Of a stretch of 32,000 nt of DNA, positions 7,693 through 31,893 are shown piece after piece. Both the position numbers and the translations under genes were made by a program. Below the pieces are notes generated by a model that was not told the DNA's origin, did no database searches, and saw only the letters and a program-made list of their open reading frames with translations. Numbering within the stretch: position 1 is the first letter of the stretch; each line of letters starts with the position of its first letter. Origin of the DNA: an archaeon (GTDB lineage Archaea > Iainarchaeota > Iainarchaeia > Iainarchaeales > 1-14-0-10-31-34); NCBI GenBank assembly GCA_024277355.1, contig JAJRVL010000009.1, positions 1-32,000 on the forward strand, written 5' to 3'.

Positions 7693-8565
7693 TTACACTT
7701 CTATATTTAAAAAATATCTTACAATAAATCCAATTAAAAAAGTAATTAATGCTACTCCTAAACTTATGCCTGCCATTTCAAAAAAACGATGTTTAAAGTT
7801 TAAATCTTTTGCAACTGAAATATAAAAAGTAAAAATAAAAATAATTATTATTGCGTTAATTAACATTGAAATTAAACTAACATAAATATCAGAAAAAACA
7901 AAATAAGGCAGAATTAAAAACAATACTGTGAAAACATATGCTGTTCCGGTATAAACTGAAGCCTTTAATGGATTCTTGAAATTTTCTTCGGTTTTTTTAG
8001 ATAAATATTCTGATGCAGCCATAGATAATGAAGCAGCAATTCCTGTAATTAATCCTGCAACAGCAATTAACTGGGAGTTCTGAAATACAAGAGTTAATCC
8101 TGCTAATGCTCCTGTTAATTCAACTAAAGCATCATTTAATCCTAATACAATTGAACCAACATACTCTAATTTTTCTTCTCTTAATAAATTAATTAATTTT
8201 CTTTCATGTTCGTTTTCATCTTTAATTATTTCTTTTACTTCAGGGATTTCTTTCAGTAATTTTTCGTATTCTTGTTGTGCTTTTTCTTCTCCGTTTTCCA
8301 TTAATTTTATTCCAAAAGTCAACCCAAAAATCTTTGAAATTAAATAATATTTCTGTATTTTAAATTTATCTGGCTGAACTTCTTTTCCAGTTAATTTTTT
8401 CCAGAATTCATAATGCTTTAATTCGTCTTTGGCAATTTTTTCTAAAATTTTTTTGTTTTCTGTTTCTTTTGTTTTTTCAGCTAATTTTTTATAAATAAAA
8501 TGTTCTGTTATTTCGCTTTCCTGCATTTCAAGAATAGTTTTTCTTGTTTTTTCTTTTAACTGCAT
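7693..8565 (-). CDS. Ferritin-like (rubrerythrin-type) domain fused to a VIT1/CCC1 Fe/Mn transporter domain
   Basis: N-terminal ExxH-type four-helix signature (EITEHFIYKKLA...KDELKHYEFW...ENEHERKL). The C-terminal 150 aa hold about 5 TM helices with GLNDALVELTGALAG, typical of VIT1. Confidence 0.75.
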   Translation of the reverse strand: MQLKEKTRKTILEMQESEITEHFIYKKLAEKTKETENKKILEKIAKDELKHYEFWKKLTGKEVQPDKFKIQKYYLISKIFGLTFGIKLMENGEEKAQQEYEKLLKEIPEVKEIIKDENEHERKLINLLREEKLEYVGSIVLGLNDALVELTGALAGLTLVFQNSQLIAVAGLITGIAASLSMAASEYLSKKTEENFKNPLKASVYTGTAYVFTVLFLILPYFVFSDIYVSLISMLINAIIIIFIFTFYISVAKDLNFKHRFFEMAGISLGVALITFLIGFIVRYFLNIEV

Positions 8566-8636: not shown

Positions 8637-8719
8637 GCAGGGTTAGCCAAGCGGTCAACGGCGGTAGGTTGAGGGCCTATGACTTAGTGTCTACGGGGGT
8701 TCGAATCCTCCACTCTGCA
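8637..8719 (+). tRNA. tRNA-Leu(GAG), class II
   Basis: Acceptor gcagggt/actctgc (one G-U), D stem gcc/ggc, anticodon stem gtagg/cctat with loop ttGAGgg, variable stem gac/gtc, T arm ggggg-ttcgaat-cctcc, discriminator A. Confidence 0.9.
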
Positions 8720-8720
8720 A

Positions 8721-8750
8721 TTTTTGATCAAACTTTTTTTTAAAAAGTTT
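8721..8750. repeat. A-type palindromic unit between tRNA-Leu and a duplicated tRNA 3' fragment
   Basis: tttttgatcaaacttttttttaaaaagttt. Confidence 0.7.
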
Positions 8751-8778
8751 GCGGGCAGTTTGAATCCTCCACTCTGCA
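8751..8778 (+). pseudogene. Relic copy of the tRNA-Leu 3' end (T loop + acceptor 3' strand)
   Basis: gcgggcagtttgaatcctccactctgca versus the genuine acgggggttcgaatcctccactctgca (8693-8719). The last 17 nt are identical, and the relic can no longer form a T stem. Confidence 0.75.
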
Positions 8779-8843
8779 TTAACGGTTTTGTCCGCGAATA
8801 ACGCGTGCTATTTTTGCTTTGCTCAATAGCGCACTGCAATAAA
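8779..8843 (+). other. Double-hairpin trailer, variant with an enlarged H2 loop
   Basis: cgcg-aataa-cgcg, then gtgctatt-tttgctttgctc-aatagcgcac, then TGCAATAAA. The H2 loop sequence recurs at 31950-31975 in the rRNA spacer. Confidence 0.5.
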
Positions 8844-8854
8844 GGTTTCTCTGT

Positions 8855-9664
8855 TTATTTTTTTGTTAAATGTTTGTTTAATTCAGGATAATGTCTGTCA
8901 ATTAATTTTTCATCAATCATTTTTCTAATTATTTTTGCAACAAACAATTCATTTACTTCTATTCCTTGTGTTTTAAGATTTTTTAGTATTGTAGTTATTT
9001 TTCTTCTTGGATTTTTAATTAAAATTCTTCTTGTTGCAATGCTTTTTGGTTCTAATAGAGTTTGAGGTCTTAACTTTTGTTCAATTAAAGCCATATTTTT
9101 TTCATTTACTTTAAATCTAACTGGAATTCCAGCTAAATTTATTATTACGCTGTCAAGTCTTCCTTTTTGAGAAGAAATTTGCTTACTTTTTTTTGTTATT
9201 TTTAGTTTTTGGTTTATTGATTTAATTTTATGTTCTTCTTTTTTAGCTATTCTTTCAAGTTTTGTTCCTTGTCTTTCTCTGAAAGCCATATATTTATTAA
9301 TAGCAGTTGTCAGATTTTTGGCTGTTCCTCCTTCAATTCCTAATTTTTTCCTTTTTTTAATTGATTTTTGTCCTGATTTTTGTATTGCTTTTATTACTGT
9401 TCCTTTGCTTTGCTGTATTTGTTGAGCGTATGTTTTTGCATGTCGTCTTAATTCTATTTTTGTTTTCATTTTTGCTTTCATTAATTTAAGTAAATCAATC
9501 AAAATAGTTCTGCTTTGAATTGTTCTTAGATTTCCATTCATAATTCTTCTTGTAGTAAACCTTCTTTGGCTTAAAGGTTTTTTGAAATAACCTTTTTTAG
9601 CTATGTTTTCAATTTGAATTCTTCTTGGAATCTTTCTTTTTTTAAGTGCAGGCATAATTATCAT
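8855..9664 (-). CDS. Hypothetical, extremely basic (K/R-rich) protein
   Basis: 269-aa ORF with no recognisable catalytic motif. The C-terminal segment (GIEVNELFVAKIIRKMIDEKLI) could be a small helical DNA/RNA-binding module. Confidence 0.45.
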   Translation of the reverse strand: MIIMPALKKRKIPRRIQIENIAKKGYFKKPLSQRRFTTRRIMNGNLRTIQSRTILIDLLKLMKAKMKTKIELRRHAKTYAQQIQQSKGTVIKAIQKSGQKSIKKRKKLGIEGGTAKNLTTAINKYMAFRERQGTKLERIAKKEEHKIKSINQKLKITKKSKQISSQKGRLDSVIINLAGIPVRFKVNEKNMALIEQKLRPQTLLEPKSIATRRILIKNPRRKITTILKNLKTQGIEVNELFVAKIIRKMIDEKLIDRHYPELNKHLTKK

Positions 9665-9718
9665 TCATTAAATAACTTTTATTAAATGAATTATGCTCTT
9701 AGAAATAGAAAAACCTTT

Positions 9719-9988
9719 CTATAAGATTTCCATATCAGCATTTTCAAATTTTTTGAGTCTTTCTTTTAATGAATCAACTTTTTGTTCCTGTTTCATTAGT
9801 ATGCTTGTTGCAGGAGACGCCTGAACTGAAACTGAATTCCCGTTTTTTTTGCTTACAACAAAAGAATTAATTACATCAATTGAATCTTCTTTCATTGTTC
9901 CAGTGTATCTGCATTTTTTGCATTGCATTCCATTATCAGTATACTGCAATTGAATTGAACCACATTCAGGACAATATTTCATTTTCAT
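9719..9988 (-). CDS. Small zinc-ribbon protein
   Basis: CPECGS...x16...CKKCRYTG at the N-terminus (a CxxC...CxxC ribbon). 89 aa. Confidence 0.5.
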   Translation of the reverse strand: MKMKYCPECGSIQLQYTDNGMQCKKCRYTGTMKEDSIDVINSFVVSKKNGNSVSVQASPATSILMKQEQKVDSLKERLKKFENADMEIL

Positions 9989-10074
9989 ATTTTTTCACAA
10001 CAAAAGCAATTGTATAAATAAACAGTTCATAGTATTTAAAGTTTACTCTTGTTTGCCTGAAAAAAGAAAAAAAA

Positions 10075-11025
10075 TTATTTTTTTAGTAAATCGCTTAAAC
10101 CAAATCTTTTTCCATTTTTTTCATCTTCATCTTCTGCTTCTCTTTCAGCAAAAGAAAATTTCCTTTTATTTTCATTTATTGCTTTTTCTTTTAACACTTC
10201 TTCGAATACAGTGTCATCAGATTTTTTTATTTTATATAAATTAAATAATGCAAACAAAACCAATAATACAATCAAAAAAACCATTCCTTTCCATGCATTA
10301 TCAACAGAAAAAGAATAAAAGCCTGTAACAAAATTTTCTTCCTGTAAATTTTCAGGTTTTATTTCATTTAATTCTATTTGTTTTAGTTTTTCTTCTTCAA
10401 GTAATTTTTCTGCTTCTTCTTGTTTTTTGATTTCCTGTAATTCATTTAATGAATTTTCTAATGCAGTTATTTCTTCTTTTAAAACAGAAGTTTTTTCAAT
10501 TATGTTTTGTTCATTTGAATTCTCTATTTCATCTAATTTTTGTTTTTGTTCATTTAATTTGTCAATTAAATTTTTTATTATTAAATCAACATCCTGCGAA
10601 ACCTCTTTAGGAAGGTTTTGTATTGCAGTTATAGTGTCAATTGAATTAACTTCAATTTCTTTTTCATCAATAAAAGCATTTCCATTAAAAGTTTTTATTC
10701 TAAGTTTATGTGTTCCTTCTTGTATTCCAAAATAAGAAACAAATAAAGTTAATCCTGCATTATCTTCAGGAATTTTATCAAAAACAAACGCCTTTAACAC
10801 AAAATCCTGCTGTATTACAGGTTGTTTGTCATTATAAGCATTAACAATTAATAAATCATCAAAATAAACCTCTGTTTTAGTGAATTCATTTGATGAATCC
10901 AAATCAATACTAAAGCTCCAGTTAATATTAGCAGGAATTTCTTGGGGAGCATTAATTTCTGCAGCTGAAACAACAGACAAAATCAAAATTAAAAACAAAA
11001 ATATTATTTTCTTCATTTTTTTCAC
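10075..11025 (-). CDS. Secreted coiled-coil protein with a single C-terminal TM helix and acidic cytoplasmic tail
   Basis: Signal peptide MKKMKKIIFLFLILILSVVSAAE, a long heptad-like E/K/L-rich segment, the TM helix GMVFLIVLLVLFALFNLY, then EREAEDEDEK. Confidence 0.55.
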   Translation of the reverse strand: MKKMKKIIFLFLILILSVVSAAEINAPQEIPANINWSFSIDLDSSNEFTKTEVYFDDLLIVNAYNDKQPVIQQDFVLKAFVFDKIPEDNAGLTLFVSYFGIQEGTHKLRIKTFNGNAFIDEKEIEVNSIDTITAIQNLPKEVSQDVDLIIKNLIDKLNEQKQKLDEIENSNEQNIIEKTSVLKEEITALENSLNELQEIKKQEEAEKLLEEEKLKQIELNEIKPENLQEENFVTGFYSFSVDNAWKGMVFLIVLLVLFALFNLYKIKKSDDTVFEEVLKEKAINENKRKFSFAEREAEDEDEKNGKRFGLSDLLKK

Positions 11026-11106
11026 TGAAATAATGTTGTTTTTATTGCTTATTAATTCTTTTGTTTTCTGTTTCCTTATTTAAATTTTTAGGCTTTTTTT
11101 TATTAC

Positions 11107-11562
11107 ATGAAAGCTTTAATTTCTTTTGTTAATTCAGCTGAAACAAAAAAGTTAACTGAAACCATAAAAGAAGAATTACAGGAAAAAAATTATTCAGTTC
11201 AGTTATCTGAAATAATCAAACAAAAAAAACAACCTAAATCAAATAAAGGAAAACCAGCTAAACTAAAATCAGGAATAACTGACTGGAAGCCTTTTGATTT
11301 AATTGTTTTAGGTTTTCCTGTTATTGGAATTTCTTCTTCTCATTTAATGAATGACTACTTAAAACAATGCATTAACATAAAAGGAAAACAAGCAGCAATA
11401 TTTATTGCTTGTATTGGACTGCATGGAAATGCCTTAAAAAAAGCTTCTTCAATTGTTTCTTTTCACGGCGGAAAAGTAAAAGATTCAATTATTATTTCTT
11501 CTTTTTTAGGTTTAAACGAAAAAAAAATTCAGCAAGCAAAAAATTTTGCTTTAAAACTCTAA
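11107..11562 (+). CDS. Hypothetical protein, possible flavodoxin-like fold
   Basis: Alternating beta/alpha pattern (KALISFVNS..., DLIVLGFPVIG, KQAAIFIACIG). This is weak and based on pattern only. Confidence 0.4.
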   Translation: MKALISFVNSAETKKLTETIKEELQEKNYSVQLSEIIKQKKQPKSNKGKPAKLKSGITDWKPFDLIVLGFPVIGISSSHLMNDYLKQCINIKGKQAAIFIACIGLHGNALKKASSIVSFHGGKVKDSIIISSFLGLNEKKIQQAKNFALKL

Positions 11563-11668
11563 ATAAAAAAGCAAGATTTAAATACTTCTTTTATGTTTTA
11601 TTTACATAAGGGGATTTTGCATTAATTTATTCGGAAACGAAATAAATGGCAACAACAAAACTAATTTA

Positions 11669-12109
11669 ATGCATTTATATACTTTCAATGAACTCAATAA
11701 AATGCATTTTTCAGGAAACTTAAATATTAAAAAAATTCAACCAGAACAAACAGTTTTAATTCACTCAAAAAAAAATTTTTTGTTATCTAATGAAGGAAGA
11801 TTTGATTTTTTAGTTGAAACAAAAACAAACAAACTAATCGGAATGGAAGTTTTAACTAGACCTTCAAAAGGCAAAATGAAAAATAAATTACGTTATGCAA
11901 AAGAAGCAGATGAATTTATTTTTGTTCTGCCGTTTAATGCAATGGAATTTTACAGGAAACAAAAAAAAATTTTCCACAAAAAAGCTAAACTAAAATTCTT
12001 TGGCAAAGAATTCTCAGACAAAAACCTGTTTGTCTGGCTTTTAGATTTAAAAAATGGGATTTTTACAGAAAAAAATACTTTTAATAAAGTATTTAATGTT
12101 AAAGCATAG
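11669..12109 (+). CDS. Hypothetical protein (possible PD-(D/E)xK-like core, RFDFLVE...GMEVLTRPSKGK)
   Basis: 146-aa ORF. The D...E.L/K arrangement is suggestive only. Confidence 0.4.
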   Translation: MHLYTFNELNKMHFSGNLNIKKIQPEQTVLIHSKKNFLLSNEGRFDFLVETKTNKLIGMEVLTRPSKGKMKNKLRYAKEADEFIFVLPFNAMEFYRKQKKIFHKKAKLKFFGKEFSDKNLFVWLLDLKNGIFTEKNTFNKVFNVKA

Positions 12110-12151
12110 TGGCGTGTTTTTAAATTTTTTTGCTGACTTTTTATTAATCAA

Positions 12152-12339
12152 GGGCCTGTAGCCTAGTGGATAAGGCATCAGCCTTCTAAACTTTTTTCGC
12201 AAAAAAGTTTAATCAAAAAAACCTTTTTCAAAAAAAGGTTTATCAAAAACGTTTTTGCTTTGCAAAAACTATTGATTTTTTTTGGTTTGGAAATAGTTAA
12301 GATAGCTGAGGATCGTGGGTTCGAATCCTCCCAGGCCCG
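12152..12339 (+). tRNA. tRNA-Arg(UCU) interrupted by a 115-nt intron at the canonical 37/38 position
   Basis: Exon 1 is gggcctg-ta-gcct-agtggata-aggc-a-tcagc-cttcta. Exon 2 is a-gctga-ggatc-gtggg-ttcgaat-cctcc-caggccc-g. Acceptor and anticodon stems are perfect; there is one T-stem mismatch (U50/C64). Confidence 0.85.
12189..12303 (+). other. BHB intron of tRNA-Arg, built almost entirely from three palindromic repeat units
   Basis: BHB: the central helix joins nt 33-35 (ttc) to intron aag (12299-12301). The 3-nt bulges are t-a-a (12187-12189) and a-t-a (12302-12304). The outer helix pairs acttttttc (12190-12198) with ggaaatagt (12289-12297). The body reads aaacttttttcgcaaaaaagttt|aatcaaaaa|aacctttttcaaaaaaaggttt|atcaaaaac|gtttttgctttgcaaaaac. 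Confidence 0.75.
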
Positions 12340-21766: not shown

Positions 21767-22062
21767 GGGTTGTGGAGAGTAAGCCGCTTTTTGTTTTACC
21801 AGCATTCACCTTTGCGTCTTAAAGACTTGCACTCCCAGAACATATTTCATTTCTGTTTAACCTAAAGCACGTTTCATCCTTTTTCCAGAAAACTCACTTA
21901 AAGGTCATCATAATTCTGGAATGGTTTCGTTTCTGCTCTTCAGGAAACCCTCTAAGGTTTGTTTTTGATGAAACTTTTTTTAAAAGTTTCTAGGAATGAG
22001 TGAGCGGACTTTCCTCAGCTCCATTTCGAAAAATGGTACCGTCAGCTGGTCTTCCACTACCC
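21767..22062 (-). ncRNA. rnpB: RNase P RNA
   Basis: The minus strand has CR-I GAGGAAAGTCCG (complement of 22005-22016) and a CR-V-like AAAAAGCGGCTTAC (complement of about 21779-21792). P1 pairs GGGTAGTGGAAG (22062-22051) with CTCTCCACAACCC (21779-21767). P3-like hairpin ccattt-ttcg-aaatgg; P5 CTCAC/GTGAG; internal ACAGAAA. A TTTAAAAA TATA-like box lies about 23-30 nt upstream. Confidence 0.75.
21956..21990. repeat. A-type palindromic unit embedded in the RNase P RNA specificity-domain region
   Basis: The plus strand reads ggtttgtttttgatgaaactttttttaaaagtttc. On the RNA strand it follows CR-I/P5 by about 12 nt. The near-repeat CATTCCTAG / CATTCCAG on the RNA strand brackets it plus 45 nt. Confidence 0.6.
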
Positions 22063-31464: not shown

Positions 31465-31496
31465 TAAACGTTTCGCCGTTTAAGCACGATGCACGA
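31465..31496. repeat. 32-bp exact direct repeat, copy A (just upstream of the 23S processing stem)
   Basis: taaacgtttcgccgtttaagcacgatgcacga, identical to 31862-31893. Confidence 0.9.
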
Positions 31497-31861: not shown

Positions 31862-31893
31862 TAAACGTTTCGCCGTTTAAGCACGATGCACGA
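31862..31893. repeat. 32-bp exact direct repeat, copy B (abutting the 5' end of tRNA-Ala)
   Basis: Identical to 31465-31496. Weaker similarity continues for about 20 nt beyond it. Confidence 0.9.

Follow-up and report, generated by a model that had tools for sequence, protein, structure and literature searches.

We have found that the 3' end of a tRNA-Leu(GAG) gene is present twice in a 32,000-nt stretch of archaeal DNA (hereafter the window), and that the two copies are separated by a single 30-nt hairpin unit, designated U. The window corresponds to C7:1-32000, a contig of the archaeal genome under study, G000, which has a size of 1.13 Mb and a GC content of 26-29%, is 96% complete, and carries archaeal rRNA and archaeal RNase P RNA. 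The working tRNA gene scored 46.1 bits in Rfam, versus a gathering score of 29, and is the single GAG isoacceptor of G000. It belongs to sequence type 1, with the acceptor GCAGGGT/ACTCTGC and the T arm GGGGG/CCTCC, and the canonical hairpin unit is absent upstream of it. Behind the gene lie U, an orphan copy of the tRNA end (the relic) and a GC-rich double-hairpin trailer, so that U sits between the tRNA gene and a convergent gene for a protein of 269 amino acids (269-aa gene). Open reading frames (ORFs) flanking the locus matched VIT1 or no Pfam family. The features are collected in Table 1.

Table 1. Features of the tRNA-Leu(GAG) locus (window positions) and direct repeats that flank copies of U in G000
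Feature	Position	Strand	Description
VIT1/CCC1-rubrerythrin fusion gene	7693-8565	-	upstream of tRNA-Leu; left flank
Working tRNA-Leu(GAG)	8637-8719	+	ARAGORN and Rfam (boundaries 8636/8637 to 8719/8720)
17-nt direct repeat, copy 1	8703-8719	+	3' part of T loop, 3' strand of T stem, 3' strand of acceptor, discriminator
Hairpin unit U, 30 nt	8721-8750	not assigned	T5GAT arm, then 10-bp A/T palindrome (hairpin)
Relic, 28 nt	8751-8778	+	orphan copy of last ~26 nt of type-1 tRNA-Leu(GAG)
17-nt direct repeat, copy 2	8762-8778	+	identical to copy 1
GC-rich double-hairpin trailer	8779-8845	+	copy of a dispersed repeat
269-aa basic ORFan gene	8855-9664	-	convergent with tRNA-Leu; synteny anchor
U-flanking repeat, tRNA-Leu end			17 nt
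U-flanking repeat, tRNA-Gln 5' end	C2		16 nt plus an inverted copy
U-flanking repeat, inside an ORF	C3:81196		perfect 43-nt pair
U-flanking repeat, gene 3' end	C2		26 nt
U-flanking repeats, two tandem cassette duplications			
alaS end			59-nt pair, 83% identity, by alignment; additional to the six

The 17-mer shared by the gene and the relic, GAATCCTCCACTCTGCA, occurs exactly twice in the window (8703-8719 and 8762-8778), versus 0.01 occurrences expected from shuffled sequences, and it occurs twice in the entire 1.13-Mb genome. When one gap is allowed, 24 of the 26 terminal nucleotides of the tRNA are matched by the relic; an inserted C and a pair of GC-to-AT transitions account for the differences, and these are confined to the first 11 nt of the relic. 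As read from the sequence, the T stem of the relic is broken (three of five pairs would remain) and its 5' acceptor strand is missing. The initial annotation had described the relic as a dead, orphan 3' end split from the live gene by one hairpin unit, with the same geometry as at alaS. This description of the sequence was correct in every detail, and alignment of the alaS end confirmed the likeness with a 59-nt pair of 83% identity.

Folding and homology searches gave no sign that the relic is an RNA gene. It folds no better than shuffled sequence (z = -0.17), the stretch comprising the relic and trailer gave z = -0.81, and covariance models found neither a tRNA match nor any other Rfam match for the relic. 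A BLAST search of the G000 genome with the first 30 nt of tRNA-Leu(GAG) returned no second copy and hence no orphan 5' half. With no 5' partner, no covariance-model match and no fold signal, a split or alternative tRNA was ruled out. The relic is best described as the dead stump of a type-1 tRNA-Leu(GAG), situated where tRNA and hairpin meet at a junction prone to recombination. It predates the species and has no tie to an integrase element, a conclusion that we consider robust.

Related sequences place the duplication before the divergence of several species. The 269-aa protein has only two close homologues (64% and 58% identity) among 5.8 billion proteins. The compared loci include L013/L014, which are European Nucleotide Archive and Logan assembly contigs, and L015, a contig from a different run. 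Both L013/L014 and L015 have the same order of tRNA-Leu(GAG), U, a stretch of 25-28 nt and the end of an orthologous 269-aa gene, and the 30-nt spacing between the copies is equal in G000, L013 and L015. Aligned to the type-1 end, the L013 relic has 17 matches, five GC-to-AT transitions and three other changes, and the L015 relic has 18 matches, six GC-to-AT transitions and one other change, so that GC-to-AT changes make up 5/8 and 6/7 of the respective substitutions. Four-fold degenerate sites of the neighboring gene are 0.69-0.79 identical among the three, indicating that the relics change at about the unconstrained rate. An apparent lineage-wise co-evolution of relic and tRNA was dropped because the lineage-specific matches were all GC-to-AT changes. 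Since the order of tRNA, U and relic is common to at least three species, the scar is old and does not reflect a recent insertion. Such substitutions and indels (eight substitutions in L013 and seven in L015), together with the lack of a relic in several members of the genus, also speak against a split tRNA under selection. The initial annotation had named two outcomes that would undo its reading, a functional split or alternative tRNA in related genomes and an assembly artefact. Neither was borne out: the G000 genome contains no 5'-half gene and the relics of L013 and L015 are decayed, and an artefact is unlikely because related contigs from two samples share the architecture and the 17-nt repeat should be shorter than typical assembly k-mers.

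Further syntenic loci were reached through homologues of a zinc-ribbon gene. Homologues of VIT1, at no more than 69% identity, were too distant to serve as a route to close relatives, and exact-sequence look-ups of two neighboring proteins returned no record. Homologues of the 269-aa protein adjoin tRNA-Leu(GAG) in L013, L015, L025/G005, L027, L028 and L029. U and relic occur together in three species, and no relic was present in G004, G001, G002 or G003. G004, a member of the same genus, has two U-type units before tRNA-Leu(GAG) and nothing behind it, and its downstream zinc-ribbon gene is syntenic (71% identity). At the tRNA-Leu locus we found no two near-identical sequences that differ cleanly as filled and empty site. 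To the right, the block from tRNA-Leu(GAG) to tRNA-Arg(UCU) (window 8779-12151) contains genes for the basic 269-aa protein, a zinc-ribbon protein, a protein of ~315 amino acids and two of ~150 amino acids. It is syntenic in at least five related contigs (including L025-L029), and is thus a conserved lineage block and not a recent island.

The trailer has a different history. Members of its family elsewhere lie directly 3' of true tRNAs, e.g. those for Met, Lys(UUU), Ile(UAU) and Ser(GGA), but neither L013 nor L015 has this GC-rich element behind its relic. A contig from run X1, ~96% identical to G000, matches U and the first 13 nt of the relic (8721-8763); 68 other letters then replace positions 8764-8884 of G000 (121 nt), and the match resumes in the 269-aa gene. 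The resulting length difference of 53 nt is close to the size of the trailer element, which would therefore be absent in this relative. The break at 8763 falls within 2 nt of the left edge (8762) of the exact 17-mer. As read by hand from the alignments, the 17-nt block of the G000 relic has no change relative to its own tRNA, versus six events each in L013 and L015. These observations suggest that the tail of the G000 relic (its last 15-17 nt) and the trailer may have been renewed together, through recombination with a tRNA-trailer module or short-patch conversion. The trailer itself was thus added later and specifically in G000, and a later addition cannot mark an original 3' end. The proposal that the trailer identifies the relic as the original end of the gene thus fails, the trailer being missing in L013, L015 and apparently the X1 relative. 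For this single locus the outcome is modest: the trailer is unusable as a marker of the original gene end.

Two sequence types of tRNA-Leu(GAG) occupy the syntenic position in the genus. Type 1 is found in G000, L013 and L027, with a related form in G004; type 2 is found in L015, L028, L029/G002, G001, G003 and G005, and differs from type 1 in the D arm, the T stem and acceptor pairs 6-7. The tRNA-Leu type disagrees with the similarity of neighboring proteins. In the sister species G005 (L025/L030) the order is U, type-2 tRNA, a 93-nt GC trailer and a 20-nt relic. This relic matches the type-1 end at 18 of 20 ungapped positions, with both changes being GC-to-AT, and it matches the type-2 end of its own gene at 14 of 20, or with at least six events when gaps are allowed. 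A working tRNA cannot change that much while a free relic changes twice, which implies that the working gene of G005 was replaced. At least one swap of the gene at this locus has thus taken place in the genus. The L015 relic could not be typed as 1 or 2, being ambiguous with gaps allowed, and was not used as evidence. The initial annotation had suggested that the working 3' end arrived with the insert. In G000, where relic and gene are of the same type, the sequences cannot decide this point; G005 supports a displacement, but of the whole gene and not only its 3' end.

The left flank of tRNA-Leu is different in every lineage and is shared with G000 only by the ~96% identical relative. The best homologues of the VIT1/CCC1-rubrerythrin protein are 65-69% identical and labelled as coming from varied bacteria and archaea, and relatives lack the gene at this position, a pattern that suggests horizontal acquisition.

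U belongs to a repeat family of about 53 members in G000 (53 copies by pattern search), and it recurs within the window as well. The 30-nt sequence occurs at 90-97% identity in the same genus, in the same family and in other families of the order, and U is therefore not a young species-specific element. Relative to tRNA genes, forward U ends 1-4 nt before the 5' end of seven tRNAs, reverse U begins 0-1 nt after the 3' end in 4-5 cases, and at least nine copies lie within tRNA introns. At the locus studied here, U ends 0-1 nt before the relic. Near protein genes, the 53 copies received 15 END_up and 10 convergent-end labels versus 2 START_dn labels, where labels may overlap on one copy. A role as a general promoter is unsupported, since only 2/53 copies precede an ORF start and most are at gene ends. 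U may still be a promoter for tRNA genes, with transcription starting at a fixed point. Its T runs would be expected to halt archaeal transcription arriving from both directions, and at the tRNA-Leu locus U most likely acts as a T-rich stop signal between the two convergent genes. A DNA-pattern scan of 196 genomes of the order found a tRNA directly followed by forward U only in G000. The same type of scan in Joint Genome Institute (JGI) metagenomes gave six chance matches, all without the hairpin, and no true case, and a protein-profile scan of JGI metagenomes for further relatives gave no match.

Copies of U also occur inside structured RNA genes of G000. One (window 21962-21989) lies within the RNase P RNA gene (21768-22061, minus strand) and was apparently inserted into the RNA. 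About 15 tRNA genes carry introns of 40-150 nt (one such region is window 12152-12339), and the introns inspected consist largely of reverse U units that abut the 5' exon.

Direct repeats are overrepresented around U. Repeats of at least 15 nt flank 6/53 copies of U versus 4/2000 random sites (0.2%). Their lengths are 15, 15, 16, 17, 26 and 43 nt, to which the 59 nt at alaS are added, and most copies of U have none. At four sites (tRNA-Leu, alaS, C2:292049 and C3:81196) a hairpin repeat comes directly after an intact gene end, and behind it the final 10-60 nt of the gene appear once more. The repeats that flank U at C2:59701 and C2:292049 are tandem duplications of the whole cassette and its flank. 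The variable lengths of the repeats, the extra bases at some junctions and the one inverted copy do not fit a transposase with a fixed stagger and fit template switching or repair-type joining. Judged as a MITE (a miniature transposable element with inverted repeats), U has the many dispersed, short, non-coding copies expected of such a family (53 in G000); it lacks a fixed short target-site duplication, the flanking repeats ranging from 15 to 59 nt.

Several of these sites were inspected individually. At C2:274803-274864, tRNA-Gln(UUG) is preceded, 46 nt upstream, by a duplicate of its own first 16 nt, and a reverse U and a 10-nt inverted copy of the tRNA-Gln start lie between the repeat copies; this arrangement is a 5'-end counterpart of the tRNA-Leu scar. 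At C3:81153-81273, a perfect 43-nt repeat surrounds one U and six extra bases within an ORF on the opposite strand. The added length at this site is 78 nt, so the reading frame is kept, and the insertion looks like the youngest event of its kind in G000. At C2:292049-292079 and its flanks, a hairpin cassette of two units is followed by a repeat of the final ~26 nt of a small gene and, with it, one further unit; the gene end and the cassette have here been duplicated in tandem. A 32-nt direct repeat (window 31465-31496 and 31862-31893) that starts with TAAACGTTTCGCC surrounds tRNA-Ala and three U units in the rRNA spacer, and the TAAACGTTTCGCC motif also begins the 93-nt trailer behind the tRNA-Leu of G005.

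We propose, with moderate confidence, that the relic was made when U was placed at the 3' boundary of the gene and the last ~26 nt were re-copied behind it, as a target-duplicating insertion without an integrase. We prefer this account because the same geometry recurs at other genes of G000. A copy of U would have come to lie at the 3' boundary of tRNA-Leu(GAG), and the gene end would have been copied again behind it. The simplest routes would be a template switch or the filling-in of breaks with a wide stagger; repeats of 15-59 nt and the extra bases in some insertions fit template switching or repair better than a transposase. The left copy would have remained in the working tRNA, kept by selection, and the right copy would have been orphaned and left to decay by GC-to-AT mutation. 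The event is older than the divergence of G000 and two or more other species. At a later time, recombination or short-patch conversion in G000 would have renewed or added the trailer and the terminal 15-17 nt of the relic, which would explain why both are still perfect.

A number of points weigh against this proposal. Neither an enzyme nor direct evidence for the mechanism was found. In G005 the relic is of type 1, the gene of type 2, and a trailer takes the place of U between them, which one target-duplicating insertion cannot explain and which needs a replacement. In the other 195 genomes of the order, no tRNA has a forward U directly behind it. Forward U normally stands ahead of tRNA 5' ends, and U may thus belong to the relic as a former upstream module. 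Taken individually, the relics of L013 and L015 are weak matches (12-13/20) that convince only through their fixed position behind U: an ungapped scan gave 12/20 at the L015 relic and did not pick out the indel-bearing L013 relic, against a shuffle maximum of 14-15. Finally, the basis for the proposed later renewal in G000 is a single Logan contig (X1), which is known by its match coordinates.

The main rival is gene displacement, which extends the logic of the initial annotation to the whole gene. Incoming DNA with an entire tRNA-Leu(GAG) at its end, accompanied by the 3' hairpin or trailer of that gene and probably by the left-flank genes, would have been joined into the resident gene at the T arm, with one end anchored by homology and the other joined illegitimately; the relic would be the stump of the resident and the working gene the newcomer. 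Such an event is demanded by G005, where a type-2 gene and trailer precede a fresh type-1 relic (two GC-to-AT changes in 20 nt versus at least six events from type 2). For G000 we consider it possible but rather unlikely. It would account for a type-2 gene in L015, which belongs to the clade of G000 and L013, and for the L027 tRNA, which is visibly close to that of G000 (by eye, not computed) though a neighboring protein is only 23% identical. A lineage-specific left flank beside a right block conserved to tRNA-Arg(UCU) also agrees with displacement, as does the absence upstream of the G000 working gene of the U that is present in G004, L027, G005 and L013. Against it, relic and gene are of the same type in G000 and in L013, where no import is demanded, and the donor arrangement, with forward U directly behind a tRNA, occurred in 0/195 other genomes. 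U and relic are moreover common to species with different gene types, so that at least one swap must have occurred without a new relic, and the L015 relic is not confidently typed.

A second alternative, which we regard as improbable, is a tandem duplication of the module formed by U and tRNA-Leu, followed by deletion of the downstream gene body between the similar repeats GCGGGGTT (positions 1-8) and CGGGGGTT (T arm). Besides U, the product would retain 5-6 nt from the start of the tRNA and ~22 nt from its end. Immediately after U the relic does begin with GCGGG, at the place where genuine tRNAs begin after a forward U (spacing of 1-4 nt at seven tRNAs), and GCGGG is the type-1 5' end in L013 and L027, the G000 gene now starting with GCAGG. 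However, this start could equally consist of the terminal G of U and the CGGG of the T stem. L013 also has a U-like element before its working gene, and its relic, as read from the sequence, equals the predicted deletion product apart from decay; the relics of G000 and L015 are instead 2-3 bases longer before the T loop than predicted. Duplications of whole cassettes with their flanks do occur in G000 (C2:59701 and C2:292049), but two intact tRNA-Leu(GAG) genes were present in no genome searched (40 relatives, with both sequence types as query), and two or three events would be required.

It is very unlikely that the relic is functional, whether as a short U-driven transcript with or without the trailer, as the initial annotation had conceived, as a decoy or regulator pairing with the tRNA 5' strand, or as the 3' half of a split tRNA. 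In favor of function, U abuts the relic in the orientation and spacing seen before real tRNAs, the position is kept in three species, and the 17-mer of G000 is unchanged where the hand-read alignments of L013 and L015 show six events each. Against function, U is found mostly at gene ends, the relics of L013 and L015 decay at an approximately neutral rate and with indels, and G004, G001, G002 and G003 do without a relic. The trailer is not conserved at the locus, a 5'-half partner is absent from the genome, and the relic has neither a fold better than shuffles nor an Rfam match. The relic is most likely junk.

We likewise see little likelihood that the locus is a classical attachment (att) scar, in which an element with a tyrosine integrase entered the T-loop sublocation of tRNA-Leu and was almost fully deleted, leaving attL (the working gene), 30 nt and attR (the relic). 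A direct repeat of the tRNA 3' segment with one copy in an intact gene is present, a repeat from the T arm to the tRNA 3' end is characteristic of integrations of this kind (PMC9897764), the native downstream flank is still attached to the relic, and the locus is recombination-prone in the genus. In place of a kb-scale element, the copies are separated by merely 30 nt, which is exactly one member of an order-wide host repeat family, and this spacing is preserved in three species (G000, L013 and L015). The acceptor strand of the relic fits the 5' part of the working gene in G000, where both are of the same type, but not in G005, where a type-1 relic accompanies a gene of type 2, its 5' part included; a crossover at a T-loop att site cannot yield that result. 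Protein-gene ends and the interior of an ORF have the same geometry with repeats of 43-59 nt. A search with Pfam PF00589 and of the flanking ORFs found no integrase gene near the locus. The genome encodes one tyrosine recombinase (Xer-like, PF00589 above the family cut-off), which is located on contig C9, away from the locus, and a weak sub-threshold match to PF00589 at C7:41625-41888 is also away from it. Y1 transposase and Cas1 were both absent from the 96%-complete genome, other transposase families not having been searched for. None of the three enzymes is encoded at the locus, and we see the tRNA-Leu scar as one without integrase involvement.

A partial tRNA gene is usually taken for the footprint of a virus or plasmid that has integrated. 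Here, such a tRNA-end footprint has only a 30-nt host-wide hairpin between its copies, recurs at the ends of protein genes, and in G005 differs in type from the gene beside it. If the pattern is general, programs that call genomic islands from tRNA-end repeats would report islands falsely in DPANN genomes, these very small genomes would possess a means, so far undescribed, of remodelling and exchanging gene ends and tRNA genes, and decaying stumps would provide a relative clock for such events. More speculatively, and with low confidence, units of U and trailers could form the active ends of a process that is directed at DNA structure, needs no integrase, and inserts at, re-copies and swaps tRNA genes and neighboring blocks among related DPANN archaea. 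Each event of such a process would leave a 3' stump as a readable record of gene exchange, and the process could also seed the long, hairpin-filled tRNA introns of G000. In a full-text survey of the literature we found no account of a hairpin element with duplication of gene ends, either in DPANN or in other archaea.

The scar resembles several known systems in part. Nanoarchaeum equitans, also a DPANN-type archaeon, has split-tRNA 3'-half genes, in which a promoter-like element directly precedes a tRNA 3' fragment, as at this locus. In contrast to those genes, the fragment described here covers only the T loop to the 3' end, lies next to an intact gene, has neither a 5'-half gene nor a complementary leader, and decays in relatives. 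Partial tRNA duplication (attL/attR) by tyrosine integrases at the T-loop sublocation has been reviewed with archaeal examples (PMC9897764), and this review cites Reiter 1989 and Williams 2002 for integration repeats that run from the tRNA T arm to the 3' end. The reviewed att duplications resemble the scar in that the partial copy starts in the T arm, the native downstream flank is kept and the working gene stays intact (PMC9897764). The intervening elements in those examples are 9-23 kb with an integrase (PMC9897764), unlike the 30 nt here, which are one copy of a host-wide hairpin repeat, and the geometry recurs here at protein-gene ends and within an ORF with repeats of 15-59 nt.

Template switching, as in fork stalling and template switching (FoSTeS) or microhomology-mediated break-induced replication (MMBIR), and homology-facilitated illegitimate recombination would resemble the events proposed here in their junction duplications of variable length, their extra bases and their inverted copies (as at tRNA-Gln). 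Processes of the FoSTeS/MMBIR type would likewise involve no dedicated enzyme, and donor and resident may differ in sequence, as in the type mismatch of G005. To our knowledge, they do not prefer a specific 30-nt hairpin or tRNA boundaries, and the preference here for U and for exact tRNA ends is unexplained by them.

Repetitive extragenic palindromes and bacterial interspersed mosaic elements (REP/BIME), Correia elements, Rickettsia palindromic elements (RPE) and MITEs are the small, palindromic, dispersed repeats of compact genomes. U resembles them in being short, protein-less, hairpin-forming, multi-copy and mostly intergenic at gene ends. Palindromic repeats and U alike are sometimes found inside genes or structured RNA genes, where they are tolerated if the transcript is cut away. 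In the REP, Correia, RPE and MITE families a target duplication is absent, or short and of fixed length, whereas the flanking duplications at U are long and variable (15-59 nt). In contrast to MITEs with fast turnover, U is conserved at 90-97% identity across families of the order.

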